Of a stretch of DNA of 64,000 bases, positions 8,039-54,134 are shown in pieces. The DNA is from an uncultured delta proteobacterium (lineage in GTDB: Bacteria; Myxococcota; Myxococcia; SLRQ01). The notes beneath the pieces were generated by a model. It made no database searches, was not told where the DNA came from, and was given only the letters and a program-made list of their open reading frames with translations. Position 1 is the stretch's first letter. Each line of letters starts with the position of its first letter. The position numbers and the translations under genes were made by a program. The stretch is taken from assembly GCA_963727485.1 (NCBI GenBank), contig CAVSGM010000002.1, positions 198,854 through 262,853 on the forward strand, given 5' to 3'.

Positions 8039-10545
8039 GTGCCCGGATCGGAGCTCGCGGGCCTCATCGGCCCCCTCCGGTTCGCGAGCCGGAACGACTT
8101 CGCCGGGGTGGAGCGGCTCCGGGGCTTCGAGGCCCTGGTGCGGGCCCGGGTCGAGGCGGCCCGGCGTGCCGGCGAGGCCGACGCGGCCCTCCTCGAGGCG
8201 CTCACCGAGGGGGTGAGGGGCTTCGACGGCAAGGATGCCGCGGCCCGGGAGGCGGTGGTCCGGGAGGTGGTGGCGCTCCTGGGGCGACACCTGGCGCTGC
8301 CGGCGGAGCTGGGCGCGCTGGCAGGGCAGGGGGCCGCGGCGCCCGCGAAGGCGGCGGTGGGGCCGAGGCCAACAGCGCCCGCGAAGCTCGCACCGCCCGC
8401 GTCCGCGTCCCACGCCCCGCACCTGGCCCGGGACGCCAGCCACGCCGGCGACGCCGCCCTCGCCGCCGCCGTCTCCACCCTCCCGGGGGTGGGGCCGAGC
8501 CGGGCCCACGCCTTCGAGGCCCGGGGGGTGGCCACGGTCGCCGACGCCCTCTGGTTCCTCCCGGTCTCCTGGGAGCGCCGGGTCCACGCCGGCCGCATCG
8601 CCGACCTGACCCACGGCACCAAGGCCGTCGTCGCCGGCACCGTGGAGACCGCCGGCGAGCGCTTCCTCGGGGCGCGGCACCGGAAGGTCTTCGAGGCCCT
8701 GGTCACCGACGGCACCGGCCGGGTCCGGGTGCGCTACTACCATCGCGCCGGGTGGGTGGCCCGCCGGCTCACCTCGGGCGCCCAGGTGGTCCTCTCGGGG
8801 CCGGTGCGCAAGGGCTACGGAGGTCTCCTGGAGATGGCGCACCCGGAGCTCCTCGAGCCCGAGGCCGTGGACGGAGACGAGGCCGACGAGGTGATCCCCC
8901 GCTACCCCGAGGTCGAGGGCGTGCCGCCGCGGACGGTGCGCCGGGCGGTCGCCGCGGCGGTGGTCCACGCCGACGCCCTCCCCGATCCCCTGCCCCCGGA
9001 GGTGGTGGCGCACCGGGGCCTGATGACCCCCGGGGCCGCGCTCCGGGGTCTGCACCTGCCCCCGCCCGGGACCCCGGTGGCGGCGCTCAACGAGGGGCGC
9101 ACCGACGCCCACCATCGCCTGGTCTACGAGGAGTTCTTCTTCCTCCAGCTCGGCCTGGCCCTGAAGGCCCGGGGGGTGAAGCTCGCACGGGGCATCGCCT
9201 TCCCGGTGGGGCCCGCGGAGGTGGAGGCGGCCCTGGAGGCGCTGCCCTGGCCTCCGACCGGGGCCCAGGGTCGGGTGGTCGAGGAGATCGCCGCCGACAT
9301 GGCCCGGGCCCAGCCCATGAACCGCCTCCTCCAGGGCGACGTGGGCTCGGGGAAGACCGCCGTCGCCGCGGTGGCGCTCTCGCTCGCCGTGGGCGCCGGG
9401 TGGCAGGGGGCGGTGATGGCGCCCACCGAGCTCCTCGCCGAGCAGCACGCCGCCACCCTCACCGGGCTCCTGGCGCCTAGGGGATCCGGGTGGTCCGCCT
9501 CTCCGGGAGCCTCGGGGCCGCCGCGCGGCGCCAGGTCCTCGCCGCCATCGCCGCTGGGGAGGCCCAGGTCGTCGTCGGGACCCACGCCCTGATCCAGCAG
9601 GGCGTCGAGTTCCACCGCCTGGGCCTGGTGGTGGTCGACGAGCAGCACCGCTTCGGGGTGCGCCAGCGCATGGAGCTGATGGAGAAGGGGACCCGCCCGG
9701 ACGTCCTGGTGATGACCGCGACCCCCATCCCCCGGACCCTCGCCATGACCGCCTACGGCGACCTGGATCTCTCGGTCCTCGACGAGATGCCCCCCGGGAG
9801 GACGCCGGTCGCCACCAAGCTCTACCGGGCCCAGGCGCGAGAGAAGGTCTACGACGTCATCCGCCGGGAGGTCGGCAAGGGCCACCAAGCCTACGTGGTC
9901 TACCCCTTGGTGGAGGTGAGCGAGAACCTCGAGGACGTCCAGGCCGCCACCGAGGCGGTGGCCCACCTCCAGGCCGAGGTGTTCCCGGAGCTGACCCTCG
10001 GTCTCCTCCACGGGAAGATGCCGCCGGCGGAGAAGGACCAGGTCATGGGCGCGTTCGCCGCCGGGCGCGTCGACGTCCTGGTGGCCACCACGGTCATCGA
10101 GGTGGGGATCGACGTCCCCAACGCCTCGGTGATGGTCGTCGAGCACGCCGAGCGCTTCGGCCTCTCCCAGCTCCACCAGCTCCGGGGCCGGGTGGGGCGG
10201 GGCGCCGCCAGGAGCTACTGCCTCCTGGTCGCCGAGGAGGTGAAGGGTGAGCGGGTGCGGGAGCGCCTCCGGGTCATGGAGGCGACCACCGACGGCTTCC
10301 GCATCGCCGAGGAGGACCTGCGCATCCGGGGCCCCGGGGAGATCCTGGGGACGCGCCAGAGCGGGCACCCGGACCTCCTCTTCGGGAACCTGGCCCGGGA
10401 CCGGGCGCTCCTCGCCCAGGCCCGGGGCGACGCCTTCGCCCTCATCGAGGCCGACCCCCACCTCCAGGCCCCGGGACACCACCGGGCGCGGATCGAGGTG
10501 GTGGCGCGGTGGGGCGGGCGGATCTCGTTGGGGCAGGTGGGCTGA
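8039..10545 (+). CDS. recG: ATP-dependent DNA helicase RecG, split by a frame change near 9475-9495
   Basis: N-terminal part in ORF 8039..9592 (Walker A GDVGSGKT, ...LAEQHAATLTGLLAP); C-terminal part in ORF 9490..10545 (VVGTHALIQ...DEQHRFGV...TATPIPRTL...LHQLRGRVGRG). The downstream frame has an in-frame TAG at the junction. Confidence 0.85.
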
Positions 10546-19692: not shown

Positions 19693-20214
19693 TCAGGGCC
19701 CGGCGCGGAGGGCGGGCAGCGCCGCCGCGCCGGCGTGCGCGAACCGGGCGCAGGCGGACTGCCTCGGCGCCAGGCGCACCAGGAGCAGGAGGCACCCGGC
19801 GGCGATGGCCAGGTTTGGCCAGTGCCCCTGCACCGCGTAGACCACCGCGTCGAAGGCCCCCGCGGCGAAGATCAGGCCCCAGGGGATCGAGAGCCGCGCC
19901 CCGTAGGCGAGGACCAGCCGCGCGCCATCGCCGAGCTCCGGGGCGCCGGCGGGCCAGGTGCCATGGGCGATCTTGTAGAGGAGCCCGCGGCGGTAGGGCC
20001 CCCACACCAGGGCGGCGGTGAACAGGAAGGTCGCCGCCACCACCACGCCCGCGGGGACGATGAGGCCGATCTTGGGGTTGGCGGCCGGGGGCGCGAGGGC
20101 CTGGAGGGCGCCGGCGGCGGCGACCCCGACCCCGAGGAGGCCGGTGAGGATGCCATGGCGCCACCGCTGGCGCGGCGGGACCCGGACGGTCGGCAGTGGG
20201 GTGGGATCGGCCAT
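19693..20214 (-). CDS. Small integral membrane protein (hypothetical)
   Basis: Internal Met (codon 198) of ORF 19693..20805: MADPTPLPTV...GLLGVGVAAAGALQALA...IVPAGVVVAATFLFTAALVWG...; hydrophobic segments. The upstream part of the ORF is GC-frame read-through. Confidence 0.5.
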   Translation of the reverse strand: MADPTPLPTVRVPPRQRWRHGILTGLLGVGVAAAGALQALAPPAANPKIGLIVPAGVVVAATFLFTAALVWGPYRRGLLYKIAHGTWPAGAPELGDGARLVLAYGARLSIPWGLIFAAGAFDAVVYAVQGHWPNLAIAAGCLLLLVRLAPRQSACARFAHAGAAALPALRAGP

Positions 20215-20326
20215 GAAGCTCGCGGCGCGGCAGGGTAGCACTTCCGACCGGGCGGCACCCGATGGTTTCGAGGCGGGCTGCCTGCTACCATCAGATTTTG
20301 CCCGGGGCGACCCCGCGTCGAATCGC

Positions 20327-21898
20327 ATGATCGATTTCGCACGGTTCGAAGACCTCCACATCGTCCGGAAGATTCGCGAGAAGATCCGGGGGTGGTGGAA
20401 CATCGAGCTCTCGTATGCCGACGAGAGCGGGTACGTCCTCGACCACGCCCAGGGGAAGATCGTTCCGCCCCACAACGACCTCTGCCAGGGATCCCTGGGG
20501 CACCGCGAGGGCTTCCAGCGGTGCAACACCTCGGTGGAGCGGGCCATCGCCCAGATCCGCGGCGAGACCGAGATCCGGGCCCGGGTGGTCCAGACCTGCC
20601 ACCTGGCCTTCCCCCTGGTCCTGGTGCCGGTGGTCGATGACCTGGGGGTGTTCCACGGCGCCATCTTCGCCGGGGGCTTCCTCATCGACGACGAGGTCGA
20701 CGACCGGCGCCGGCGCATCCTCGACGAGACCGCCCGCCAGGGGCTCCCGGTGGCCGATCCCGACCAGGCCTTCGCCGGGATCCCGGTGATCCGGCGCCGC
20801 GACATGGACTACTTCTGCGACCTCCTCGAGACCACCGTCGAGGAGATCGTCGAGTTCAACAAGGCCCTGCGCGAGCGCGAGACCCGCATCGAGGCCCTCA
20901 CCGGCGAGCTCGAGGGGCGCTACCGGTTCGGCAACATCGTGGGCAAGTCCCCGGCGATGCGCCGGCTCTTCTCGCTGCTGGAGAAGGTGGTGCAGTCGGA
21001 CAGCACCATCCTGGTCACCGGGGCGAACGGCACCGGCAAGGAGCTCATCGCCCGGGCGCTCCACTACAACGGGCCGCGGGCCCGGGGCCCCTTCGTGGTC
21101 CAGAACTGCTCGGCGCTCAACGACAACCTCCTGGAGAGCGAGCTCTTCGGCCACGTGAAGGGCGCGTTCACCGGCGCCACCCGGGACAAGCAGGGCCTGT
21201 TCAAGGTGGCCGACGGGGGCACCTTCTTCCTCGACGAGGTCGGGGACATGTCCATGGCCATGCAGGTCAAGCTCCTCCGGGTCCTCCAGGAGGGCACCTT
21301 CATCCCCGTGGGCGGGACCGGCGCGGTGAAGGTCGACGTCCGCATCATCACCGCCACCAACCGCGACCTGAAGCAGATGGTCGAGCGCCGGGAGTTCCGC
21401 GAGGACCTCTACTACCGCCTCAACGTCATCAACGTGGAGGTGCCCCCCCTCCGGGACCGCAAGGAGGACCTGCCGCTCCTGGTGGCCCACTTCCTGGAGC
21501 AGCACGTCGACGGCCGGGGGCCCAAGCGCCTGGCCTCCGAGATCATGGCCCGGTTCTACGCCTACGACTGGCCCGGGAACGTCCGGGAGCTGGAGAACGA
21601 GATTGAGCGGCTGGTGGTCCTCTCCGGCGAGGGCGAGCTCATCGACGAGGGGGTCCTCGACGTGGCCACGCGCCCCTACCCGGAGGCGGCGAACCCGGCG
21701 CGCCTCGCCGGGAAGGGAGACCTCGCCAGCGCGGTTGCGGCCCTGGAGCGCGAGATGATCCGCGAGGGGCTGGTCGCCACCCACTGGAACAAGACGCGAC
21801 TGGCCGAGCGCCTCGGGGTCTCGCGCACTACGCTCATCAAGAAGATCAAGGAGTACGGCCTCGAGGAGCGGGGGAACCCGCTGGCCGAGGGGCACTGA
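20327..21898 (+). CDS. Sigma-54-dependent transcriptional activator with a non-receiver N-terminal Cys/His-containing sensory domain
   Basis: MIDFARFEDL...; AAA+ core GKSPAM...TGANGTGKEL...GAFTGA...GTFFLDEVGDM...ESELFGH...; C-terminal HTH; N-terminal about 190 aa has no receiver Asp motif. Confidence 0.85.
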   Translation: MIDFARFEDLHIVRKIREKIRGWWNIELSYADESGYVLDHAQGKIVPPHNDLCQGSLGHREGFQRCNTSVERAIAQIRGETEIRARVVQTCHLAFPLVLVPVVDDLGVFHGAIFAGGFLIDDEVDDRRRRILDETARQGLPVADPDQAFAGIPVIRRRDMDYFCDLLETTVEEIVEFNKALRERETRIEALTGELEGRYRFGNIVGKSPAMRRLFSLLEKVVQSDSTILVTGANGTGKELIARALHYNGPRARGPFVVQNCSALNDNLLESELFGHVKGAFTGATRDKQGLFKVADGGTFFLDEVGDMSMAMQVKLLRVLQEGTFIPVGGTGAVKVDVRIITATNRDLKQMVERREFREDLYYRLNVINVEVPPLRDRKEDLPLLVAHFLEQHVDGRGPKRLASEIMARFYAYDWPGNVRELENEIERLVVLSGEGELIDEGVLDVATRPYPEAANPARLAGKGDLASAVAALEREMIREGLVATHWNKTRLAERLGVSRTTLIKKIKEYGLEERGNPLAEGH

Positions 21899-25600: not shown

Positions 25601-27849
25601 ACCACCTCGGCCTCCCGGCGGAGCACGTCGACCACCGGGTCCCACTCCCCACGCCGGGCGTGGAGGCGCTGGAGGGCCCGGAGGGCGGGGAGGGCGTCGG
25701 GGCGCTCGTCGAGGACGGCGCGGTAGGTGCGGATGGCCTCGCCCTCGTCGAGGAGCTGCCCCTCGAAGAGGCCGCCCATCTTGAGGAGGAGGGCCACGCG
25801 GTGGGAGGTGTTCTCGGTGACCTCGAGCTCCCGCCGGTACATCTCCACCAGCTCCCCCCACCGGCCCTTCTGGAAGTAGAGCTTCCCCAGGGCCTTGAGG
25901 GCCGGGAGGTAGGCGGGCTGGAGCACCAGGACCTTGCGCCAGGCCTCGATGGCCGCGTCCCGGTCGCCGATGCGGCGCTCCAGGAGCTCGGCGACCTCGT
26001 GGAGCAGGGCCACCACCCGGCGCTGGTCGTCGACCAGCTCGGACTCGCGCTCGGTGAGGCGGACCAGCTCGTCCCAGCGCTCGAGGCCCCGGTTGAGGCG
26101 CTGGAGCTGGCGTACCGCCGGCAGGTGCTCCGGGCGCACCTCGAGGACCCGCTGGTAGGTGGCGATGGCCGCCTCCCGGTCGCCCTGGCGCTCCTCCTGG
26201 AGGCGCGCGATCTGGTCGAGGAGGTGGATTTGCTGGTCGACGTCCTCCCCGGCCTCGGTGAGCTCGAGCTCGTGGAGGGCGATGAGGTCGGCGAAGCGCC
26301 CGGTGGCCTCGTAGAGGCGGTTGAGGCTCTGGAGCGCCGGGAGGTAGCCGGCGCGGATCTCGAGGATGCGCCGGAGGGTCTCGATGGCCGCCTCGGGCTG
26401 CGCCAGCTGCGCCTCCTGGACCTCGGCGATCTTGAACAGGCGCATGGCCTGCTGCTTGGGATCGGTGGCCGCCGCCAGCTCCTGCTCGAAGGTCCAGATG
26501 AGGTCGTCCCAGCGCTCGGCGCGGAAGTAGAGCTTGCCCAGGGCCGAGAGGGCGTCGGGGGAGCCCGGGCGGGCCTGGAGCATCTGGCGGTAGGCGGCGG
26601 CGGCGTCGTCGGCGCGGTGGAGGCGCTCGTCGAGGAGCTGGCCGAGCTGGTGCCACACCTCGCCGAGGGTGTGGGGATCGATGACCCGCCCGGAGAGGTC
26701 CTGGAGGATGCCGACCAGGTCGTCCCAGCGCTCGTAGGCCTCGTAGGCCGGGGCGAGCTCCTGGAGGACGGCGACGGCGTCGGGGGCGAGCTGGCGGGCC
26801 TTCTCCAGGAGCGCCACGGCGTGCTCGGGGCTCCCCAGGCGTTCCCGGGCCACCTGGGCGGCGTGTCGCAGGGTCGCCGCGGCCTTGCCGGCGTTCTCGG
26901 TGGCCTCGGCCTCCGCCTCGAGGATCCCCACCAGGGCCTTGGCGTCGCCGGCGGCGTCGTGGAGGCGCTCGAGGGCCAGGAGCGGCACCGGGTGGGCGGG
27001 GTCGACCTGGTGCGCCTGCTCGTAGAGGGCCCGGGCCTCGTCGGCCTGGCCGAGGCGGTCGGCGTGGAGGCCGGCGGCGGCGCAGAGGAGGGCGAGCTTC
27101 AGGGCCGGGGCGCCCTCCGCGGCGTTGGCCAGCGCCTGGTAGCGCGCGGCGAGGGCGGCGTGGTCGCCCTCGCGGGCGGCGACCTGGGCCAGGTAGACCG
27201 AGGCGGCGCGCCCCTCGGGATCGAGGCGCTCGACCTCGGCGAGGATGGGGAGGGCGTCGACGGGCTTGCCCAGGCGGTCGTGGAGGAGCACCGCGCGCTC
27301 GAAGAGGAGCTGGGCCCGCTTCCTTGGGGCCGGGTCGGCGTCGGCCTCGGCCTGGAGGAGCTGGGCGACCATGGCCCAGTTGCCCACGCCGGTGAACAGG
27401 CGCCTGGCGGCGCGGAGGTTCGGGCGGTAGGTGGCGTCGGCCTTGAACGCCGACTGGTAGCAGACCGCGGCCTCCCGGGGCTTGTCGAGCCAGGCCTCGA
27501 AGACCTGGCCGGCGGCGTGCCACAGCCGCGCGGCCGCCGGGTCCCCGGCCCGGGCCTGGGCCTCACGGCGGTAGCTCTCGGCGAGGTCCTCCCAGCTCCC
27601 GCCCTCGAGGAGGATCGAGGCGTCGGGGCCCGGGTCAGCGGCGTCGGTGGGGCCGTCGGCGCCGTCGGGCGCGGGGGGGGGCGCCGCCTCGGTGGGCCCA
27701 TCCCCGGCCGCGGCCACGGGGGGCACGCCATCGGCCGCCGCCCCGGGCTGGGGCGGTGACTGGGGACCGTTGTCGAAGAACGACGCCTCGAGGGGGTTGT
27801 CGGCCGGGCTCCCGCCCTCGCCCGGAGCCTTGGGCTCACCTGCCATGTG
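22680..27849 (-). CDS. Very large TPR-repeat protein (about 1720 aa), C-terminal frame change near 22750
   Basis: ORF 22555..27897; start at second Met [11 protein letters not shown] after GGGGAGG; dozens of TPR-like units (...ALYEQA...DPAH..., ...AYRRVLE..RP....AL..L..LY...). True C-terminus ...[26 protein letters not shown] is in an adjacent frame ending about 22680. Confidence 0.75.
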
Positions 27850-34725: not shown

Positions 34726-35025
34726 TCACGCCTCGCCGGACCCCTCGGGCCCGCCCTCGCCGTAGCCGTAGGGGGCCTCGGGGAGCGCCTCGCCCTCGGC
34801 GAGACCGAGGAAGACCTTCATCTGGACGTCGAGCTTCTCCGCGTCGGCGGCGCTCGCCAGGTTGAGCCGGAACTCGTTGATCACCTTGGTCTGCATCACC
34901 TGCCAGGCCCGCCAGCAGGAAAGGCACACGTGGTCCTGGATCTCCTGACCCGAGGGCCCGGGCCAGGGGGGCGCCGGCAGGGCCTCCCGCGCCTCGCCAC
35001 ATCTCGCACACTTCACCGTCGCCAT
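34726..35025 (-). CDS. YggX-like Fe(2+)-trafficking/oxidative-damage protection protein
   Basis: MATVKCARCGEAREALP...HVCLSCWRAWQVMQTKVINEFRLNLASAADAEKLDVQMKVFL, resembling the YggX W..W...QT.LINE..LN...FL pattern; GGAGG RBS. Confidence 0.6.
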   Translation of the reverse strand: MATVKCARCGEAREALPAPPWPGPSGQEIQDHVCLSCWRAWQVMQTKVINEFRLNLASAADAEKLDVQMKVFLGLAEGEALPEAPYGYGEGGPEGSGEA

Positions 35026-35040
35026 GGGTTCCTCCGAGGA

Positions 35041-35057
35041 CTGCACTGACATTCAGG
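35041..35057. promoter_or_regulatory. Candidate LexA box (CTGCACTGACATTCAGG) in the divergent yggX-like/uvrD-like promoter region
   Basis: Matches the delta-proteobacterial LexA motif CTRHAMRYBYGTTCAGS at 13/17 and shares CTG-N9-TTCAGG with the site upstream of lexA in this window. Confidence 0.35.
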
Positions 35058-39890: not shown

Positions 39891-39965
39891 GCGCGCGTAA
39901 CTCAGCGGTAGAGTGCCACCTTCACACGGTGGAAGTCGCTGGTTCGAACCCAGCCGCGCGTACCA
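39891..39965 (+). tRNA. tRNA-Val (anticodon CAC)
   Basis: GCGCGCGTAACTCAGCGGTAGAGTGCCACCTTCACACGGTGGAAGTCGCTGGTTCGAACCCAGCCGCGCGTACCA: 7-bp acceptor stem, D-stem ACTC/GAGT, anticodon stem CCACC/GGTGG with loop TTCACAC, T-arm GCTGG-TTCGAAC-CCAGC, encoded CCA. Confidence 0.9.
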
Positions 39966-40029
39966 TCTTCCCGCGCCCGCTCCCCCAGGTTGGGGGGCGG
40001 GCGCGGGCTTCTCGACGCCGCGCCTACTG

Positions 40030-41568
40030 ATGGCTGCTTCCGAGCGCAGGCCCCGGGCCCTGGTCGTCGACGACGACGACGGGATGCGTGGGAACATGGC
40101 CCACATCCTCGAGGCCGACGGCTTCGAGACGGTGGGCGCGGTCGACGGGATGGACGCCCTGGGGCGGCTCGAGCGCGCCAGCTTCGACATCGCCCTCCTC
40201 GACATCCAGATGCCGGGCATCGACGGCCTGGAGACGCTGAAGCGGATCCGGGAGAAGGCGCCGGAGGTCGAGGTGGTGATGGTCACGGTGCTCAAGGAGA
40301 TCCCCAAGGTCGTCGAGGCGATGAAGCTCGGGGCCTTCGACTTCCTCACCAAGGACTTCCGGGCCAGCGAGCTGCAGCTCAAGGCCCAGCAGGCCCTGAC
40401 CCACAGGCGCACCGCCCGGCAGATGGCCTACCTCCGCGACGAGGTGGAGCGACAGGCCCCCGGCGAGATGATCATGGGCGACGGGCCGGCGATGCGCGAG
40501 GTGTCGACCCTGGTCGACAAGGTGGCGCCGCTCCCCGCCACGGTGCTGGTCCTCGGCGAGAGCGGGACGGGCAAGGAGCTGCTGGCCAGGCGTCTCCACC
40601 GCATCTGGTCCGGGGGCGACAAGAAGAAGCCCTTCGTCACGGTGAACCTGGCGGCGATGCCCGCCAGCCTCATCGAGTCCCAGCTCTTCGGGCACGAGAA
40701 GGGGGCGTTCACCGGGGCCACCGAGCAGCGCCTGGGGAAGTTCGAGCTCGCCGACGGAGGCACGCTCTTCCTCGACGAGATTGGCGAGCTGCGCCTCGAT
40801 CTCCAGGCGAAGCTCCTGCGCGCCATCCAGGAGCGCGAGGTGGAGCGCCTCGGGGGCAAGCGTCCGGTGCCGGTGGATGTCCGGCTCATCACCGCCACCA
40901 ACGTCGACCTCAAGGAGGCGGTCCACGCCGGTCGCTTCCGTGAAGACCTCTACTACCGCATCAACGTCATCCCCATCCGGCTGCCGCCCCTGCGCGAGCG
41001 CATCGAGGACGTGCCGGTGCTGGCGCGGCACTTCGCCCGGAAGGCGGGGCAGCGGTTCAACCGGCCAGTGCCCGAGCTCACCGACACGGCGCTCGAGGTG
41101 CTGATGCGCTACCCCTGGCCCGGGAACGTCCGGGAGCTGGAGAACCGCATCGCCGGGCTGGTGGCGGTGCAGGACCGGCCGGTCATCGACGACGTGGACC
41201 TGCCCATCGAGTTCAGCTACCCGCGCTTCTACGACGAGGCCCGGCGCAAGAAGGCGGACGGGCTGGCGGTGGCGCTCACGGCCTTCGAGCGGTCGTTCAT
41301 CGCCATGACCCTGGAGAAGACGGGGTGGCACCGGAAGCAGGCGGCGGCGGAGCTGGGCATCGGCTACTCGACGCTGAAGAAGAAGCTCAAGAAGCTGGGT
41401 GCTCGCGCCGCCCGGGGGGCGCCACGCCGACGGGGACCCGGACGGCGACGACGACGAGGGGTGAGCCCTCACCGGCGCCGGAGGGACGTGGCGCGCGTGG
41501 CCGGCGTCGTCAGGCGGCGTCGGGGGACGACTCGGCCACCGGGGGACTGGCGCGCCGGGGCAGGGTGA
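40030..41568 (+). CDS. NtrC-family sigma-54-dependent response regulator (receiver, AAA+, HTH) with Arg-rich C-terminal extension
   Basis: MAASERRPRALVVDDDDG...DIALLDIQMPGIDG (receiver) ...GESGTGKELLA...GAFTGA...ELADGGTLFLDEIGEL...AAELGIGYSTLKKKLKKLG (HTH); the last about 55 aa are low-complexity and overlap the convergent kinase gene, so the true stop may be earlier. Confidence 0.85.
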   Translation: MAASERRPRALVVDDDDGMRGNMAHILEADGFETVGAVDGMDALGRLERASFDIALLDIQMPGIDGLETLKRIREKAPEVEVVMVTVLKEIPKVVEAMKLGAFDFLTKDFRASELQLKAQQALTHRRTARQMAYLRDEVERQAPGEMIMGDGPAMREVSTLVDKVAPLPATVLVLGESGTGKELLARRLHRIWSGGDKKKPFVTVNLAAMPASLIESQLFGHEKGAFTGATEQRLGKFELADGGTLFLDEIGELRLDLQAKLLRAIQEREVERLGGKRPVPVDVRLITATNVDLKEAVHAGRFREDLYYRINVIPIRLPPLRERIEDVPVLARHFARKAGQRFNRPVPELTDTALEVLMRYPWPGNVRELENRIAGLVAVQDRPVIDDVDLPIEFSYPRFYDEARRKKADGLAVALTAFERSFIAMTLEKTGWHRKQAAAELGIGYSTLKKKLKKLGARAARGAPRRRGPGRRRRRGVSPHRRRRDVARVAGVVRRRRGTTRPPGDWRAGAG

Positions 41569-46660: not shown

Positions 46661-46741
46661 GGCGCAGCCGCTCCTAGGCGAGCCCTCAGGTCTCACCCTA
46701 GAGCCAGTGGTGGCACGCCGCTGGCAAAAGAGACCAGTGCA

Positions 46742-46990
46742 ATGTCCAGGCTCGCCAAGGTCAAGGTCGTCGAGCTCGACGGGAAAAAGGTGTTCCTCCA
46801 CTTCTACGAGGACGTCTCGACCCTCGGGACGCCCCGCTACTCGGTGGAGATCCGCTTCGGCCCCGAGGACCGCGTCGTCTTCGACGGCCCCAGCATCTCG
46901 GACCTCGAGGCGACCACCCAGGCCTGCCTCCCTGCCACCTGGGCCAGCCGGCGGATGCTCGCCGGCGCGGCCTACGGCGCCCCCCACTGA
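46742..46990 (+). CDS. Small protein (82 aa, hypothetical) translationally coupled to the downstream histidine kinase
   Basis: MSRLAKVKVVELDGKKVFLHFYEDVSTLGTPRYSVEIRFGPEDRVVFDGPSISDLEATTQACLPATWASRRMLAGAAYGAPH; stop overlaps the kinase ATG (TGATG). Confidence 0.5.
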   Translation: MSRLAKVKVVELDGKKVFLHFYEDVSTLGTPRYSVEIRFGPEDRVVFDGPSISDLEATTQACLPATWASRRMLAGAAYGAPH

Positions 46991-47865
46991 TGCAACCCCT
47001 CGCCTCCCAGCCGACGCCCTCGCGTCCCTACCGCGCCGATCCCATGCCCCGCGACCCCGAGCTTCACGCCGCCCGCCTCGTCGAGCTGGGCAGCCTGGTA
47101 CCGGGGCTGGTGCACGAGCTCTCGAACCCGGCCGCGGTCCTCCGGGGCAACCTCGGCGCCGTCGTCGACCACGCCGACACCCTGGGCCGACTGGTCAACG
47201 GCCTCGACCAGGGGCAGGACGCCTCGGCCCTGCGCCGGGACCTCGAGCTCGATGACACCGCCATCGACCTCGCCGAGCTGGTGGGCGAGTCCGCCGGCGC
47301 CCTCGACGAGCTGGTCTCCCTCCTCGGCGACATCCGTCACTACGCCGCCGGCGCCGAGGCCGAGGCCGAGGCCGATCTCGCCTCGGCCGTCGCCGCCGCC
47401 CTGCGCCTCGCCACCTACGAGACCAAGTACCGGGCCGCCGTGAGCGTCGGCGTCGGCGACCTCCCTCGGATCGCCCTGTGCCCCGTCCACCTGGTGCAGC
47501 TGGTGCTGGCCCTCATCCTCAACGCCGCCCAGGCCCTCGCCGACCACCGGCAGCTCCACGGCGACCTGGGCCACGTGTCCCTCTCGGCCAGGGCCGAGGG
47601 CGACGACCTCGTCGTCCTCGAGGTCCGCGACGACGGCCCCGGCGTGTCCCCCGACCTCGCCGACCGCGTCTTCGAGCCCGGGGTCACCTCGCGGCCCGGG
47701 GCCAGGGGCATGGGCCTGTACCACGCCCGGAACCTCCTCGAGCGCGCCGGTGGCGCCCTCGTCCTCCAACCGCCCCGTGGCGGGGGCGCCGTCTTCGTCG
47801 CGCGCCTGCCCGCCCTCTCCGACGACATTCACAGTGAGGCCATCGGTCCTGTCCACAAGACATAG
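46990..47865 (+). CDS. Soluble histidine kinase core (HisKA plus HATPase, no TM or recognisable sensor domain)
   Basis: ...ARLVELGSLVPGLVHELSNPAAVLRGNLG (H-box near N-terminus)...ILNAAQAL...LEVRDDGPGVSPDLADRVFEPGVTSRPGARGMGLYHARNLLERAGGAL. Confidence 0.75.
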   Translation: MQPLASQPTPSRPYRADPMPRDPELHAARLVELGSLVPGLVHELSNPAAVLRGNLGAVVDHADTLGRLVNGLDQGQDASALRRDLELDDTAIDLAELVGESAGALDELVSLLGDIRHYAAGAEAEAEADLASAVAAALRLATYETKYRAAVSVGVGDLPRIALCPVHLVQLVLALILNAAQALADHRQLHGDLGHVSLSARAEGDDLVVLEVRDDGPGVSPDLADRVFEPGVTSRPGARGMGLYHARNLLERAGGALVLQPPRGGGAVFVARLPALSDDIHSEAIGPVHKT

Positions 47866-47989
47866 GGTCTTGTGACCATGCCCCCCCGCAGAGGTCGATG
47901 GCCGGGAACCCCGCCGTGAATACGGCGGGGTTCTCTTTTTCCGTCCCCCGCGCCCGTCGGACGAGGGGAGCGCAAGGCGCGGCCTGCGC

Positions 47990-48379
47990 CTACGCCTCGG
48001 GCGTCTCGGTCTCCCGCTTGCGCAGCATGTACTTCACCTTGCGCATCAGCCCGTCGAGGTCGAAGGGTTTCTCGATGAAGTCCTCGGCCCCGAGCTCCAG
48101 GCCGAGCTGGCGGCTGAAGGGGTCGCCCCGGGCCGAGAGGAAGAGGACCGGGATCGCCCGGGTCTGGTCGTCGGCCTTCAGCGCCCGGCACACGTCCCGG
48201 CCGTCCATCCGCGGCATGTTCACGTCGAGGACCACCAGGTCGGGTTGGTCGCTCTGGGCGAGGGCGAGGCCCTCGACGCCATCGGCCGCGGTGATCACCG
48301 TGAAGCCGTGGCGCTCGGCGGTGCGACGGAAGATCGTGCGCAGCTCGGCGTCGTCGTCGACGAAGAGGAGGCGAGCCAT
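47990..48379 (-). CDS. Single-domain (CheY-like) response regulator
   Basis: MARLLFVDDDAELRTIFRRTAERHGFTVITAADGVEGLALAQSDQPDLVVLDVNMPRMDGRDVCRALK...IPVLFLSARGD...; 129 aa; convergent with the kinase core. Confidence 0.8.
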   Translation of the reverse strand: MARLLFVDDDAELRTIFRRTAERHGFTVITAADGVEGLALAQSDQPDLVVLDVNMPRMDGRDVCRALKADDQTRAIPVLFLSARGDPFSRQLGLELGAEDFIEKPFDLDGLMRKVKYMLRKRETETPEA

Positions 48380-48451
48380 GGCGGGCATTATAGGGATCGA
48401 TCGCGTCCGCGTCTCTCCATCGGTCGCGCTCCGGTGATACGCTCCCGGGCC

Positions 48452-49693
48452 ATGCACCGCCACCTCGCCTGGCTCTGCGCCGCCACCGTCGTCTTCGCCG
48501 CCTGCAGCAAGGGGAACAGCGTCGTCCCCACGCCGGCCCTCAAGGCCCAGGCCGCCTACCACCAGGGCAACGCCAAGCTCGTCGCCGGCGACTTCAAGGC
48601 GGCGCTGGTGCTCCTGCGCCGATCGGTGCGCCTCGATCCGGGGCTGGTCCAGGCGCACCAGGCCCTGGGCGAGACCTACCTCGGCCTGCTCCGGGGCCCG
48701 GAGGCCGAGGAGCAGTTCCGCCTCGCTCTCAAGATCCAGCCCAAGAAGTACCTGGCGTGGGAGGGCCTCGGCGACGCGCTCCGCCTCGAGCACCAGCTCG
48801 ACAAGGCCCTCGACGCCTACGCCCACGCCGCCACCCTCGACCAGACCCTCCCCGATCCCTGGACCTCCCAGGGCGAGGTGCTCCGGGACCAGGACGCCTA
48901 CGCCGACGCCGCCGCCGCCTTCGAGAAGGCCGCGGCCCGCGCCTCGGGAAAGGACGTCGCCACCCAGTGGACCAGCGCCGGCGGGGCCTGGGGCAAGGCC
49001 GGCAAGTGGGACCGCGCCGCCGCCAATCTGGCCAAGGCCGCCGCCGCGACCCCCAAGGCCGCCAGCGCCTGGGACCGCCTCGGTCAGGCCCGGGCCCACG
49101 CCGGGGACATGAAGGGCGTGGCCACCGCCTACGCCCGGGCCGTCGCCGTCTCGCCCGAGGACCCGGTCCTCTGGGAGCTCCTCGGCGCCGCCCGCCGGGC
49201 CCTCGGTGACGCCGCCGGGGCCCGCAAGGCCTACGAGCGGGCTCGAGACCTGGCGCCGCACCGCGCCTCGGTCTGGGAGGGGCTCGGGCGCCTCGACCTC
49301 GACGCCAAGGACCTCCCCGCCGCCACCCGGGACGCCCACCGCGCCCTCGACGCCCTGGGGAGCACTGGCCCGTCCCAGGGCAAGAAGGGCGCCGCCGTCG
49401 CCGCCGAGGTCGAGGACGACAACGTGGTCGCCAACGTCGCCAATCTCCTCGCCAAGGTCGGCGACCACGACCGCGCCGCGGGCCTCTACCGGATGCTCCT
49501 CGGAGGCAAGGGCGACCACGATCCCCAGCTCTGGATCGCCCTGGCCCACGAGGACACCGCCCTCGGCGACAAGGCGGCCGTGGCCCTCGACTGCGCGACC
49601 GCCCGGAAGGACGCCGGAACGCAGGCGCTCACCGGCCTCGAGGTCTGCCCCAAGGCGCCCAAGCCGTCGCCGGGCAAGTCCCCGGGCAAGTAG
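48452..49693 (+). CDS. TPR-repeat lipoprotein
   Basis: MHRHLAWLCAATVVFAACSKGN (lipobox), then TPR-like units ...YHQGNAKLVAGDFKAALVLLRRSVRLDPGLVQAHQALGETYLGL... Confidence 0.75.
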   Translation: MHRHLAWLCAATVVFAACSKGNSVVPTPALKAQAAYHQGNAKLVAGDFKAALVLLRRSVRLDPGLVQAHQALGETYLGLLRGPEAEEQFRLALKIQPKKYLAWEGLGDALRLEHQLDKALDAYAHAATLDQTLPDPWTSQGEVLRDQDAYADAAAAFEKAAARASGKDVATQWTSAGGAWGKAGKWDRAAANLAKAAAATPKAASAWDRLGQARAHAGDMKGVATAYARAVAVSPEDPVLWELLGAARRALGDAAGARKAYERARDLAPHRASVWEGLGRLDLDAKDLPAATRDAHRALDALGSTGPSQGKKGAAVAAEVEDDNVVANVANLLAKVGDHDRAAGLYRMLLGGKGDHDPQLWIALAHEDTALGDKAAVALDCATARKDAGTQALTGLEVCPKAPKPSPGKSPGK

Positions 49694-49702
49694 ACGCCGG
49701 AC

Positions 49703-50389
49703 CTAGTGGACCCGGCGGTAGACGCCGACCACCACGCCCAGGATCTGGGTGTCCCGGAAGTCCTGCTGGTGGACGTAGATGGGCTGCATCGCCGCGTTCG
49801 CCGGCTGGAAGCGGATGCGGTCGCCCTCGGGGAAGTAGCGCTTCACCGTGGCGTCGCCGTCGATCATGGCGACCACGATGTCGCCGGCGTCGGCGGTGAG
49901 CTGCTTCTTCACGAAGATGTAGTCGCCGTCGAGGATGCCGTCGTCGATCATGGACTCACCGCTGACCCGGAGGCCGAAGACCTTCTTGGTGGTCCCCCCG
50001 AGGAAGAAGCTGTCCACGTGCACCGTGTCGGTGACGTTCTCCTCGGCGAGGATCGGGCTCCCGGCGGCGACCCGCCCGAGGACCGGGATCGCGACCAGGT
50101 CGCCCTCGGGGAAGATCGCCGGCACCGCCACGTCGACCGCGGTGGGGTGGGGCGCCTCGCCGAGGGCGCGCAGGGCCGGGGCGGTGAGGGCGAGAGCCCG
50201 GGACTTCTTGTCGCCACGCTCGATGTACCCCTTGCGCTCGAGGGCCTTGAGGTGGTCGTTGACGCCGTTGGTGGACCTGATGCCGAAGGCGGTGCCAATC
50301 TCGCGGATGGTCGGGGGGTAGCCGCTCCCGTTGATGCTCTGGTGGATGAAGCCGAGGATGTCCCGCTGCCGCTGGGTGAGCTCCTGCAT
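49703..50389 (-). CDS. lexA: LexA repressor
   Basis: [58 protein letters not shown]...[24 protein letters not shown]...[17 protein letters not shown] (S24 peptidase Ser/Lys region). Confidence 0.9.
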
Positions 50390-50400
50390 GTCCGCCCTCT

Positions 50401-50433
50401 CCTGAAAACAGGTTCAGGCACAAGATACTGAAC
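50401..50433. promoter_or_regulatory. Candidate LexA operator(s) upstream of lexA (CCTGAACCTGTTTTCAGG on the lexA strand, plus GTTCAG-N10-CTGAAC)
   Basis: CTGAACCTGTTTTCAGG matches the delta-type LexA motif CTRHAMRYBYGTTCAGS at 15/17; within 30 nt of the lexA start codon. Confidence 0.45.
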
Positions 50434-50502
50434 GGGCGCCCAGCGCGTCAAGAAATCCGGCGCCGCCTTCCGCCCCGGACGCCCCTGGGGTACACAGGGC
50501 CC

Positions 50503-51582
50503 ATGCGACCGGCGACCCGCCACCTGGGCCACGGGGTCAGGGCCACTCTCCGCCACCTGCCCCTGGTGGCCCTCCAGGCCTCCGTGGACCTCACCGCGAG
50601 CCTGGCGGCCCTGCTCCCGGCGGTGGTCGCCGCGGTCCTGGTGGTGCGCCACGCCGTCACGCTGGTCTCGGCCCTGCCCCCGACCCGCAACCCCCTGGCC
50701 CTCGCCGCGGCGGAGCTGCTGGGCTACCTCCTCTCGGCGCGCTTCCTGATGCCGGTGGTGGGCCTCGCCGCGGCCGGGGCGCTGCTGGTGGCGATGATGC
50801 GGGTCCTCTATCTCACCGGCGCCCTGGGCCTCCTCGCCGGCGACCTCCGCGCGGGTGGCCGGGCGCCGGCCGGCGGCTTCATGGACGCGGTGGTCGCCCG
50901 GTTCCCGGCGGCCCTCGCCGTGGTCGCCCTCATGGGGGTCGCGGGCCTCGCGGTGGCGGGCCTGGTCGCGGGCCTGGTGGGCGCCGCCGGCGCCGTGTTC
51001 GCCGCCGGGCCCTCGGTGGCGAGCGCCGCGGGCCTCGCCCTCGCCGGGAGCCTGACGGTGGTCCTGCTCGCGATCTTCGAGGCCGTCCGGCACCTCGCCC
51101 TGGTCCGCACCGTGGCCCTCGGCGAGGGCCCGGGTGTGGCCACCTACGAGGCCGGGGCCCTGGTCCTCCGGCGTCCCGGGACCCTCCTCGCCCTGGGGGT
51201 CCTGCTCCTTGGCGTCGAGCTGGCCGTGGCGGTGATCTTCGCCAGCGCCACCGGGATGCAGGGCCTCCTCCCCGCCGCCGCCGCGGCCACCGGATGGGCC
51301 GTCGGCGCCCGGGTCGTAGGCGAGGTCACGGCCACCGTGGCCCTCGCCGTGGTCGGCGTGGTCGCCTGGGGCGCCCTGGTGTCCCTGGCCCTCGATGACG
51401 CCGGGGCGCTCCCGCCGGACCCCGAGCCCGCGCCCCGGTCGACCCCGCCCGCACCCGCGCCGGCGGTCCCGGCGCGGCGGGTGTCCCTCGCCCGGCCCGT
51501 GTCGGAGGTGTGGCCGCCGGCGCCGGCGCCTCAGGCCGACGCCCCGGGCGACGACGCCTCAGACGACGACCCCTCGGCGTAG
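50503..51582 (+). CDS. Polytopic membrane protein (hypothetical), Ala/Leu/Val-rich
   Basis: Multiple hydrophobic segments (LVAGLVGAAGAVFAAG, LTVVLLAIFEAV, VALAVVGVVAWGALVSLAL); low-complexity, so the exact frame/start is uncertain. Confidence 0.45.
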   Translation: MRPATRHLGHGVRATLRHLPLVALQASVDLTASLAALLPAVVAAVLVVRHAVTLVSALPPTRNPLALAAAELLGYLLSARFLMPVVGLAAAGALLVAMMRVLYLTGALGLLAGDLRAGGRAPAGGFMDAVVARFPAALAVVALMGVAGLAVAGLVAGLVGAAGAVFAAGPSVASAAGLALAGSLTVVLLAIFEAVRHLALVRTVALGEGPGVATYEAGALVLRRPGTLLALGVLLLGVELAVAVIFASATGMQGLLPAAAAATGWAVGARVVGEVTATVALAVVGVVAWGALVSLALDDAGALPPDPEPAPRSTPPAPAPAVPARRVSLARPVSEVWPPAPAPQADAPGDDASDDDPSA

Positions 51583-52463
51583 CACCCGAGCCGGTCCCGG
51601 AAGAACTTCTCGAGGCGCAGGTTGAGCAGCTCCGGCTGCTCGATGGGCGCCGCGTGGCTCCCCTTGGGGATCACCAGCAGCTCGGCGTCGGGGATGAGGT
51701 CGGCCATCTCCTCGGAGAGCCACATGGGCGTGAAGGTGTCGAGCTCGGCGCCGACCACCAGGGTGGGCACGTCGACGTGCCCCAGGTGGTCCCGGGTGCT
51801 GTGGGCCGCGGCGTGGGAGAGGAGCCGCACGAAGACCTCCGGGTCCATCTTCCCCAGGTGGTCGAAGTAGGGCTGCATGTCCTCCCAGCGGATGAGCGAG
51901 CGGTTCACCTCCCCGGCGAGGAAGGCGAGGAGCCAGGCCATCCGCGAGGGGAGCAGCGCCCGCCACAGCCCCACCACCGCCCCGGGGAAGCCTTCGAGGA
52001 TCCGGTTGATGTAGGGCAGGCCCTCCTTGAGGGCGGCGGTGCCGTGGAAGGTGTCCAGGGGCCGGCCGTAGCTGCCGCAGACCAGCACCAGGGCGGCGAC
52101 GCGCCCGGGCATGCGCCGGTGGGCCTCGAGGACCACCTGCACCCCCACCGAGTGCCCGGCGAGGATGGCGCGCTCGCTGCCGGCGGCGTCGAGGACGGCG
52201 CCGAGGTCGCCCACCAGGTCCTCGATGGCCATGCGGTCGAGGTCCCGGGGCGTCGCCGAGCGTCCGTGGCCCCGGTAGTGCCAGCGGATCACCCGGTGCC
52301 GGTCGGCGAAGGCGGGCACCACGTACTTCCACACGAAGCCGTCGCAGCCGATGCCGTCGCAGAGCACCAGGTCCGGTGCCGTGGGGCGGTCGGGCCCGGC
52401 GATGGTGTAGTAGATCGACGTCCCGTCGGACGCCTGGCAGAACCCCTCGGTGTAGCGCTCCAT
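51531..52463 (-). CDS. Alpha/beta-fold hydrolase
   Basis: MERYTEGFCQASDGTSIYYTIAGPDRPTAPDLVLCDGIGCDGFVWKY...AILAGHSVGVQVVLEA (GHSxG nucleophile elbow). Confidence 0.8.
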   Translation of the reverse strand: MERYTEGFCQASDGTSIYYTIAGPDRPTAPDLVLCDGIGCDGFVWKYVVPAFADRHRVIRWHYRGHGRSATPRDLDRMAIEDLVGDLGAVLDAAGSERAILAGHSVGVQVVLEAHRRMPGRVAALVLVCGSYGRPLDTFHGTAALKEGLPYINRILEGFPGAVVGLWRALLPSRMAWLLAFLAGEVNRSLIRWEDMQPYFDHLGKMDPEVFVRLLSHAAAHSTRDHLGHVDVPTLVVGAELDTFTPMWLSEEMADLIPDAELLVIPKGSHAAPIEQPELLNLRLEKFFRDRLGCYAEGSSSEASSPGASA

Positions 52464-52480
52464 GACCCCTTCCCGCGCCG

Positions 52481-54047
52481 TCAGCGTGCGGCCTGGCGCG
52501 GCTCCTCGAGGCCGTACTTCTCACACTTCGCGATGAGGTTCGAGCGGCTCACGCCCAGCTCGCGCGCGAGGCGCGACTTGTTCCAGTGGGTGCGGATGAG
52601 CCCCTGGTGGATCATCTCCCGCTCCAGGGCCTCGACGGCGTGCTTGAGCTTGCCGGTGGTCTTGATGGGGCTGACCCCCTTGGGCGTCCCCACCGCGTCG
52701 CGGATCCGGGGGCTGACCAGGTCGACCCCGAGCTCGCCGTCGTCGGCGCCGAGGACCAGGAGCCGCTCGAATCTCGTTCTCGAGCTCGCGGATGTTCCCG
52801 GGCCAGTCGTAGGTGCCCAGCAGCTCGAGGCACTCGCGCGCGAGGGTCCGGGCGTCGCCGTTGCCGTGCTTGCGCAGGAAGTGCTCCACCAGCAGGGGGA
52901 TGTCGTCGCGGCGCTCGCGCAGGGCCGGGACGTCGATCTTGATGACGTTGATCCGGTAGTAGAGGTCCTCGCGGAACTCGCCGGCCTCGACCATCTTGGC
53001 CAGGTCCTTGTGGGTGGCGGCGATGACCCGGACGTCGACCTCCCTGGCGGAGGTCCCGCCCACCGGCGTGAAGGTGCCCTCCTGGAGCACCCGGAGGAGC
53101 TTGACCTGGAGGGTGGGGGACATGTCCCCGACCTCGTCGAGGAAGAAGGTCCCGCCGTCGGCGACCTCGAAGAGGCCCTTCTTGTCCTTGATGGCGCCGG
53201 TGAACGCGCCCTTCACGTGACCGAAGAGGGCGCTCTCCAGGAGGTTGTCGTTGAACGCCGAGCAGTTCTGGACCACGAACGCCTTGTCCTTGCGCGGCCC
53301 GTTGTAGTGGATGGCCCGGGCGACCAGCTCCTTGCCGGTGCCGCTCTCCCCGTGGACCAGGACCGTGGAGTCGGAGTTGCACACCTTCTCCAGGACCCGG
53401 TAGACGTCCTGCATCGCCTGGCTGGAGCCGATGATGGACTCGAAGCGGTAGCGCTCGGAGAGCTCGTCGGAGAGGTGCTGGATCTCCCGGTCGCGCTTGC
53501 CCATCTCCAGCTCGAAGGCGGCAATCTCGTCGGCGCCGAACTCGAGGAGGTCGCAGAGCTTCTCCACGCCCTCCGGGGGGATCACCGGGAGCCGCTGGAC
53601 GGCCCGGTCGAGGTCGGTGGCCCCGGGGTTGAGCACCCGGATCCGCGAGCTGGCCTGCTCGACCTGCCGCTCGGTGAGATCCTCCCGGAGGAAGCCACCG
53701 ACGAACATGAAGCCCTTGTACTCGGAGGCCACCACGATGGGGCAGCCGACGATGGTGAACCCCAGGTGGCAGTCGTGGAAGAGGCAGCGCCTGGGCTTCT
53801 TGCTGGCGCGGAACTTGTCGCCGACGAACTTCACCGACTCGTTGCAGCGCCGAAAGCCCTCCTTGGAGAAGAGCGAGAGGCGGCAGAAGTCGTTGTTCGG
53901 GGGGATGATCTGGCCGTTGGCGTGCTCGAGGACGTAGCCGGTCTTGTCGGCGAAGGCGAGCTCGAGGCCCCACCACTTGCGGATCACGTCCCGCAGCATG
54001 ATGATGGTGTGCAGGTTCTGGTAGCGCTCGTACTCCTGCAACGCCAT
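52481..54047 (-). CDS. Sigma-54-dependent transcriptional activator, paralogue of the 20327-21898 gene (same N-terminal Cys/His domain), frame change near 52765-52775
   Basis: MALQEYERYQNLHTIIMLRDVIRKWWGLELAFADKTGYVLEHANGQIIPPNNDFCRLSL...KEGFRRCNESV...; AAA+ core GESGTGKELVA...GAFTGA...GTFFLDEVGDM; HTH tail ...HWNKSRLARELGVSRSNLIAKCEKYG in ORF 52481..52693 frame; [11 protein letters not shown]. Confidence 0.8.
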
Positions 54048-54134
54048 GCTCTTTCTCCTCCCGGGACGGCCAGCGGTAAGGCGCCCCTTGGTGACTTGAC
54101 CTGACCGGCGACACCCCACCGCCGGCTGCACAGA

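Follow-up and report, generated by a model that had tools for sequence, protein, structure and literature searches.

Two candidate Myxococcus-type LexA operators in the lexA promoter of an uncultured myxobacterial lineage

The lexA promoter analysed here probably carries two separate Myxococcus-type LexA operators, box A and box B, which would mediate autorepression of the gene. The promoter lies in a stretch of DNA of 64,000 nucleotides (64 kb; the whole stretch is called the window below). The LexA relatives place the window in the Myxococcota, the former Deltaproteobacteria, in agreement with the delta-type lineage named in a preliminary description of the same DNA. Both boxes overlap the only promoter predicted there, as that description had claimed for its LexA operator candidates. 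Most likely, LexA shuts off its own gene through box A and box B; LexA binding is suggested by the conservation of the two sites. What the analysis establishes directly is the sequence, placement, and conservation of the boxes, together with the intactness and recognition helix of LexA; the transcription start, the binding of LexA, and any cooperation between the boxes are inferred.

The lexA gene and its promoter

The window LexA belongs to the NCBIfam equivalog family TIGR00498 (4.4e-67; 225.6 bits against a cut-off of 110.95). PF01726 and PF00717 are on record for a protein identical to it, and comparison with the LexA chains in the PDB gave matches down to 7e-37. The protein has the DNA-binding and S24 domains, the Ala-Gly cleavage site, and the Ser/Lys dyad of the LexA class. 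The corresponding motifs, VAAG (cleavage site), GESM (serine), and TVKR (lysine), all align with solved LexA structures; RecA-stimulated self-cleavage is therefore expected. The start codon is the ATG at 50389, and the N-terminus MQELTQRQ aligns with MEELTxRQ and MQGLTQRQ of the relatives. The helix-turn-helix region starts with PPTIREIG, and the recognition helix has the majority sequence of 80 Myxococcota LexA proteins. A 17-residue part of this helix is identical in the Myxococcus/Archangium-type LexA proteins (L024, L040, and L011). Since the recognition helix is the same as in the Myxococcaceae, it is reasonable to expect the same half-site preference.

The gap between lexA and a divergent open reading frame is 113 bp long, and on the lexA (minus) strand it reads ...ggatttcTTGACGcgCTGGGCGCCCGTTCAGTATCTTgtgcCTGAACCTGTTTTCAGGAGAGGGcggacATG. 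The sequence inspected for the bases first flagged (50401-50433) reads ...TTGACGcgCTGGGCGCCCGTTCAGTATCTTgtgcCTGAACCTGTTTTCAGGAGAGGGcggacATG on this strand; the left half of box A falls outside those coordinates. The features are as follows:

49703-50389, minus strand: lexA coding sequence (228 aa), with an N-terminal winged helix-turn-helix domain and an S24 self-cleaving peptidase domain
50395-50403, minus strand: ribosome-binding site AGGAGAGGG, read from the sequence, ending 5 nt before the ATG
50401-50417, minus strand: box B, the proximal candidate operator, CTGAAC-CTGT-TTTCAG-G, at about +1 to +16 of the predicted transcript
50412-50433, no strand assigned: everted repeat GTTCAG-N10-CTGAAC, an exact match, found in 0 of 100 shuffles
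50422-50427, minus strand: predicted -10 hexamer TATCTT (promoter scan), with an N18 spacer to the -35 hexamer
50427-50443, minus strand: box A, the distal candidate operator, CTGGGCGCCCGTTCAGT = CTGGGC-GCCC-GTTCAG-T, filling the -35/-10 spacer
50446-50451, minus strand: predicted -35 hexamer TTGACG (promoter scan), where TTTCTTGAC is invariant in the alignment of close relatives (alignment A2)
50503-51582, plus strand: divergent open reading frame of 359 aa, Ala/Leu/Gly-rich, a putative multi-pass membrane protein (judged by eye)

TTGACG-N18-TATCTT was the only sigma-70-like promoter predicted in 50200-50700 on both strands, and none of 50 shuffles gave one. In four of the six promoters compared (the window and its five closest relatives), a TAnnnT hexamer stands immediately 3' of GTTCAG. 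Both boxes overlap this predicted core promoter, as would a Myxococcus-type LexA operator. Box B begins 4 nt past the -10 hexamer and covers the predicted transcription start (about 50412-50418); its final bases are overlapped by the ribosome-binding site. The candidates had been placed within about 30 nt upstream of lexA; they do lie upstream, but slightly further away, at -12 to -44 from the start codon.

In this arrangement, a LexA dimer on box A, between TTGACG and TATCTT, would exclude RNA polymerase from the promoter. A dimer on box B, which extends from the predicted start to the ribosome-binding site, would block open-complex formation or promoter escape. Upon DNA damage, RecA on single-stranded DNA would bring about self-cleavage of LexA at the Ala-Gly bond. 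Cleavage would vacate both boxes, allowing lexA to be re-expressed and the SOS response to be reset.

Consensus matches, matrix scores, and the Myxococcota promoters

The M. xanthus LexA box CTRHAMRYBYGTTCAGS is known from the lexA and recA2 promoters (Campoy et al. 2003, cited in PMC9705874 and PMC2248561). Box B, CTGAACCTGTTTTCAGG (50417 to 50401, minus strand), matches 15 of its 17 positions, with mismatches at positions 7 and 11; the 17-mer originally reported with this score was thus recovered, letter for letter. The other strand of box B, CTGAAAACAGGTTCAGG (50402-50418), likewise matches at 15/17, with GTTCAGG intact. Box A matches at 14/17, and neither box agrees fully with the published consensus. 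By chance, a 64-kb window should hold about 1.2 matches to the 17-mer with two mismatches, and the bare consensus or palindrome, with mismatches allowed, gives 1.2-1.4 expected matches per window. A bare consensus match therefore proves nothing, and as neither it nor the palindrome is significant alone, position-aware and comparative tests were used in its place. More specific elements are rarer. GTTCAG occurs only 11 times in the 64 kb (both strands), two of them 10 nt apart in the lexA promoter; CTGAAC-N4-TTTCAG with at most one mismatch has a chance expectation of 0.03.

A first weight matrix was built solely from the lexA promoters of other organisms (80 genome loci). When both strands of the window were scanned with it, the three best matches all fell within a 43-bp stretch of the lexA promoter: box B (16.0 bits), its other strand (14.4 bits), and box A (13.6 bits). 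With a relaxed matrix, box B scored 15.5 bits and box A 13.8 bits. Over the two matrices, box B ranked best or second-best in the window, and box A third among the loci. Across 160 related loci, the density of matches with at least 13 bits is 5 per kb in the DNA upstream of lexA and 0.015 per kb in the flanking DNA.

These numbers bear on the possibility that the matches arose by chance in an AT-richer intergenic stretch, and that lexA is not autoregulated through them. The expectation of about 1.2 two-mismatch 17-mers per window would allow it, as would the dinucleotide shuffles, which gave matches of at least 13.5 bits at 0.75 per window, and the low scores of the window among lexA promoters. 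However, the boxes lie in the one region that was relevant a priori, where about 0.002 matches of at least 13 bits are expected in 113 bp, and two separate boxes were observed rather than one. Relatives with different flanking bases also keep them base for base, and within about 750 kb of related loci CTGAAC-N4-TTTCAG occurs only at the box B position. An origin by chance is hardly credible against this evidence.

With the relaxed matrix, the median score of the relatives' best sites is 20 bits, and the 5th percentile is 15 bits. Of the 88 best sites, 69 have an A at position 5, where box A has another base. The T at position 11 of box B is found in none of these 88 sites, and neither is the G at position 10 of its other strand. 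The relaxed-matrix scores compare with those of the M. xanthus sites as follows:

M. xanthus lexA site: 22.6 bits; bound in vitro (PMC9705874)
M. xanthus recA2 site: 20.9 bits; bound in vitro (PMC9705874)
M. xanthus pafBC site: 16.3 bits; weak in vitro (PMC9705874)
Window box B: 15.5 bits; between the M. xanthus pafBC and recN scores
M. xanthus recN site: 15.0 bits; not bound in vitro (PMC9705874)
Window box A: 13.8 bits; the lowest score in the comparison

Both boxes score low, in the range of weak or no in vitro binding by M. xanthus LexA. In M. xanthus, sites with two mismatches show weak binding (pafBC) or none (recN) (PMC9705874). The sub-consensus boxes of the window suggest a weak or easily relieved autorepression, which would rely on the two sites together.

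A LexA protein search gave 80 genome loci and 80 metagenome loci, all of them Myxococcota where named, and 138 non-identical lexA promoters formed the comparison set. In the genome loci, GTTCAG on the lexA strand lies at most 120 nt upstream of lexA in 76 of 80 (31-fold enrichment), and TTGACA is likewise enriched. GTTCAG is present in 132 of the 138 promoters. In 78 of them its first base lies 16-18 nt past a -35-like TTGAC, so that the operator fills the promoter spacer there; in another 45 it stands 31-35 nt after the -35, overlapping the -10 and +1. The genome-set matrix found a match of at least 10 bits in all 58 independent metagenome lexA promoters. Its consensus, approximately C-T-R-Y-A-C-G-N-N-Y-GTTCAG-K, agrees with the published M. 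xanthus box. The general form of the Myxococcus-type operator, about CTRYAC-N4-GTTCAG, can be read as a degenerate relative of the Gram-positive GAAC-N4-GTTC.

Two non-overlapping boxes were found in 75 of the 138 promoters. The Myxococcus/Archangium-type lexA promoters (L024, L029, L039, L040, L044, L068, L132, and L159) carry a second, reverse-oriented box, CTGAACGTTCGTTTCC (other strand GGAAACGAACGTTCAGT), which scores 20-21 bits. Relative to the start codon it lies at about -34, and the first box, which is the published one after the -35, is 8 nt upstream of it. For M. xanthus itself, a limited literature search found no mention of a second lexA operator. The Polyangiaceae lexA promoters (L041, L045, L049, L050, L053, L054, L065, L069-L071, L080, and others) read TTGACGA-TAGAAC-N4-GTTCAG-TAG; their operators hold a full Gram-positive-type GAAC-N4-GTTC box within the promoter spacer.

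Conservation of box A and box B in the closest relatives

The five closest relatives were chosen by LexA identity: L166 (79%), L169 (72%), L001 (71%), L170 (70%), and L168 (69%). L001 has the nearest LexA in the genome collection; L166, L169, L170, and L168 were obtained through protein search and contig look-ups. Closer relatives were not found in the JGI metagenomes (none above 65% identity). L167 was left out, with only 15 nt of upstream DNA. L081 gives no independent evidence, because it represents the window organism in a second assembly (97.7% overall identity, with no difference in the promoter).

In the alignment of the window and these five relatives, TTTCTTGAC-N3-CT...C...C-GTTCAGTA is invariant. 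The conservation to be expected of a Myxococcus-type LexA operator was found for both boxes, for box A in 5/5 relatives, all in register, and for box B in 3/5. The left half-sites of box A are:

Window: CTGGGC
L170: CTGGGC
L166: CTGCGC
L168: CTGTCC
L169: CTACCC
L001: CTAATC

Judging by these left halves, the absence of the A at position 5 is typical of the clade and not a sign of decay in the window. Box B (CTGAAC-N4-TTTCAG) is present in the window, L166, L170, and L168, at -28 to -36 from the lexA ATG. The first candidate of the preliminary description is thus a conserved element in these relatives. Its half-sites are invariant; its 4-nt spacer varies (CTGT, CCCC, CCCT, and CCAA, respectively). 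The exact motif occurs in 4 of 170 fetched loci (about 750 kb), solely at box B: L081, L166, L170, and L168. Invariant half-sites with a free spacer would be the footprint expected of a dimeric DNA-binding protein.

This protein might be different from LexA. Box A alone could be the LexA operator, and box B, written as CTGAACC-N3-TTTCAGR, could be a clade-specific conserved element with another role: it could serve as a binding site for some other regulator, as an element of the initiation region or 5' UTR, or as a small hairpin by the ribosome-binding site. Box B breaks two of the most conserved matrix positions (T11, or G10 on the other strand), and these departures from the pan-Myxococcota matrix are themselves kept in L166, L170, and L168. 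Its distance is fairly constant to the ATG, but not to box A, and it is absent from the aligned promoters of L001 and L169, both of which have box A. Because the departures are conserved in the clade, this explanation keeps a small share of the probability. Nevertheless, CTGAAC and TTTCAG each equal the LexA half-site or differ from it by one base, and the spacer is exactly 4 nt as in LexA boxes, with its letters free to vary. The Myxococcaceae lexA promoters also have their second, reverse-oriented box of 20-21 bits at the equivalent place. A 5'-UTR RNA hairpin, CCUGAA...UUCAGG, was rejected: the fold is unremarkable (z = -1.15), 26 of 200 shuffles fold equally well, and the stem has just 5-6 mostly A-U pairs, partly upstream of the predicted start. 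A role for box B unrelated to LexA is thus considered unlikely.

The GTTCAG-N10-CTGAAC palindrome of the preliminary description is exact in the window, but it does not hold as an operator unit. In the reading tied to it, a single LexA dimer or a different dimeric regulator would occupy one long everted operator, with the -10 hexamer at its centre. The exact 6+6 match, not reproduced in 100 shuffles, and the bracketing of the -10 hexamer speak for it. However, the spacing from the box A GTTCAG to the box B CTGAAC in the clade is 10, 15, 16, or 18 nt, with 10 nt in the window and the larger values in its closest relatives. Across the 138 Myxococcota promoters the same pair stands 6, 8, 13-17, or 26 nt apart, never 10. 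As the half-site spacing is not conserved among orthologous promoters, the palindrome was rejected as a functional unit. The known LexA boxes of the lineage and the derived matrix pair their half-sites in the opposite manner (inverted, N4), and each hexamer of the palindrome has its own N4 partner. The distal GTTCAG, assigned to the palindrome at first, is instead the right half-site of box A (50443-50427). A single everted operator is accordingly very improbable, and the palindrome is just the strong half-sites of box A and box B facing each other across the -10 hexamer.

With two LexA operators as the preferred reading, the strength and spacing of the boxes can be compared. In L001, box A is strong (20.5 bits) and box B is absent; the weaker versions of box A accompany extra boxes. 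This fits compensation by multiple weak sites, in a correlation that covers six sequences only. The centre-to-centre distance between box A and box B is 26 bp in the window and 31-33 bp in the relatives; this variation means that no conserved helical phasing backs a strict cooperativity. In this clade, lexA autoregulation might have shifted from one strong operator to several sub-consensus sites, including the variant CTGAACC-N3-TTTCAGR at the transcription start, although this is a tentative proposal of low probability. If true, the shift could reflect a LexA of looser or changed specificity, a lexA promoter that is leaky by design, or joint control with the divergent putative membrane protein gene (50503-51582).

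The box A promoter of L001 (958-1104) lies 132 nt upstream of the first in-frame ATG, and the annotated LexA of L001 (269 aa) has an N-terminal extension of about 40 aa compared with the window protein. L001 may have either a long leader or an extended LexA protein.

Known operators and other features of the window

The EMSA-bound M. xanthus lexA probe is GTTGACTCTACACGTCTGTTCAGGGAGAG (PMC9705874), so the experimentally bound operator lies directly after the -35, as box A does. The comparison with a characterised Myxococcus promoter, suggested at the start, therefore places box A at the position of a bound operator. The layout TTGACT-CTACACGTCTGTTCAGG puts the M. xanthus operator where box A sits, with the same right half-site GTTCAG (PMC9705874), and the recognition helix of M. 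xanthus LexA is the same as that of the window LexA. The left half is CTAYAC in M. xanthus; in contrast, it is CTGGGC in box A, where position 5 is not A, as is typical of the window clade. Set against the M. xanthus operator, the window also has a further candidate operator, CTGAAC-N4-TTTCAG, at about +1.

The Gram-positive Cheo box is CGAACRNRYGTTYC (GAAC-N4-GTTC), according to PMC2248561. The window boxes share its inverted half-sites 4 nt apart: GAAC-N4-TTTC of box B agrees with it at 7/8 positions and GGGC-N4-GTTC of box A at 6/8, whereas the Polyangiaceae lexA promoters carry the full TAGAAC-N4-GTTCAG. The Myxococcota operators differ from the Cheo box in a longer half-site, GTTCAG, and in a far more degenerate left half.

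The E. coli lexA promoter has two tandem SOS boxes. It is similar in having two adjacent operators that overlap its own promoter or start site, with negative autoregulation resetting the SOS response. Its SOS box motif, CTGT-N8-ACAG, is unlike the window boxes, and its boxes are adjacent at a fixed spacing, whereas the centres are 26 bp apart here and 31-33 bp apart in close relatives.

LexA autoregulation via operators in its own promoter is textbook biology, and no open question is therefore touched. A lexA promoter with two operators is nothing unusual, found here in a lineage that has been little studied; the features peculiar to the clade are minor (box B and the degenerate left half of box A). 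The main use of the analysis is annotation, as it locates the lexA promoter and its candidate operators for an uncultured lineage of myxobacteria. Owing to the degeneracy of the left half-site, the consensus published for M. xanthus turns out to be too strict here. A further product is a matrix for the Myxococcota as a whole (about CTRYAC-N4-GTTCAG), which found a site in 58/58 independent lexA promoters. The weak, doubled candidate operators may be a small point of interest for the tightness of SOS repression in myxobacteria, where LexA is reported to repress only a very small regulon directly (PMC9705874).

Beyond lexA, the matrix scan and the orthologous loci revealed no other conserved promoter under LexA control in the 64 kb. 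The top relaxed-matrix match in the window (16.0 bits) is CTGCACTGACATTCAGG, located between two genes:

34726-35052, minus strand: YggX-like gene, on the other side of the site from the helicase gene
35041-35057, plus strand: CTGCACTGACATTCAGG
35076/35085-37196, plus strand: UvrD/Rep-family helicase (PF00580, 6e-68), with the site in the short gap before it

The site was rejected as a LexA-regulated helicase promoter, being absent from four syntenic orthologous loci (L162-L165; 91%, 75%, 69%, and 68% identity), with no sigma-70 promoter predicted at 35041-35057; it may be lineage-specific or due to chance. The other matrix matches of at least 10 bits (1824-1840 and 26431-26447) were rejected as lying inside long open reading frames. 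Among the submitted window open reading frames annotated with Pfam, no further recognisable SOS-type gene with a site was found.

The divergent open reading frame has no Pfam or NCBIfam match. Its arrangement with lexA and a downstream TPR gene is kept in the clade (L166 52%, L002 42%, L169 44%, L001 39%, and L168 36%), and was not seen in the other 150-odd Myxococcota lexA loci. In Gram-positive bacteria, cell-division-inhibitor genes are found beside lexA, and the pairing of a divergent putative membrane protein gene with lexA is reminiscent of this neighbourhood. Box A lies about 60-76 nt upstream of the start codon of the divergent gene; no promoter was predicted on the strand of this gene (50200-50700).

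The window sequence shows some irregularities. The recG gene is seemingly split into overlapping open reading frames in different frames, 8039-9592 (plus strand) and 9490-10545 (plus strand). The first contains the RecG wedge and the start of DEAD; the second contains the rest of DEAD, Helicase_C, and RecG_dom3_C. The split looks like a frameshift, possibly an assembly indel. L081 (ENA ERZ25039500 contig_8292) aligns with 46703-53332 of the window at 97.7% identity over 6.7 kb with 50 gap openings, and the divergent gene is called as 389 aa in L081 versus 359 aa in the window. These differences suggest indel errors in one or both assemblies.

The 64 kb contain three sigma-54 enhancer-binding proteins, at 20018-21898 (plus strand), 39913-41568 (plus strand), and 52521-54131 (minus strand). 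Two of these proteins have a PocR sensory domain. Over 0.6 kb (21039-21622), the window DNA is about 81% identical to the start of L081, a region equivalent to about 52.7-53.3 kb of the window and situated inside the third of these genes. The genes at 20018-21898 and 52521-54131 look like recent paralogues.
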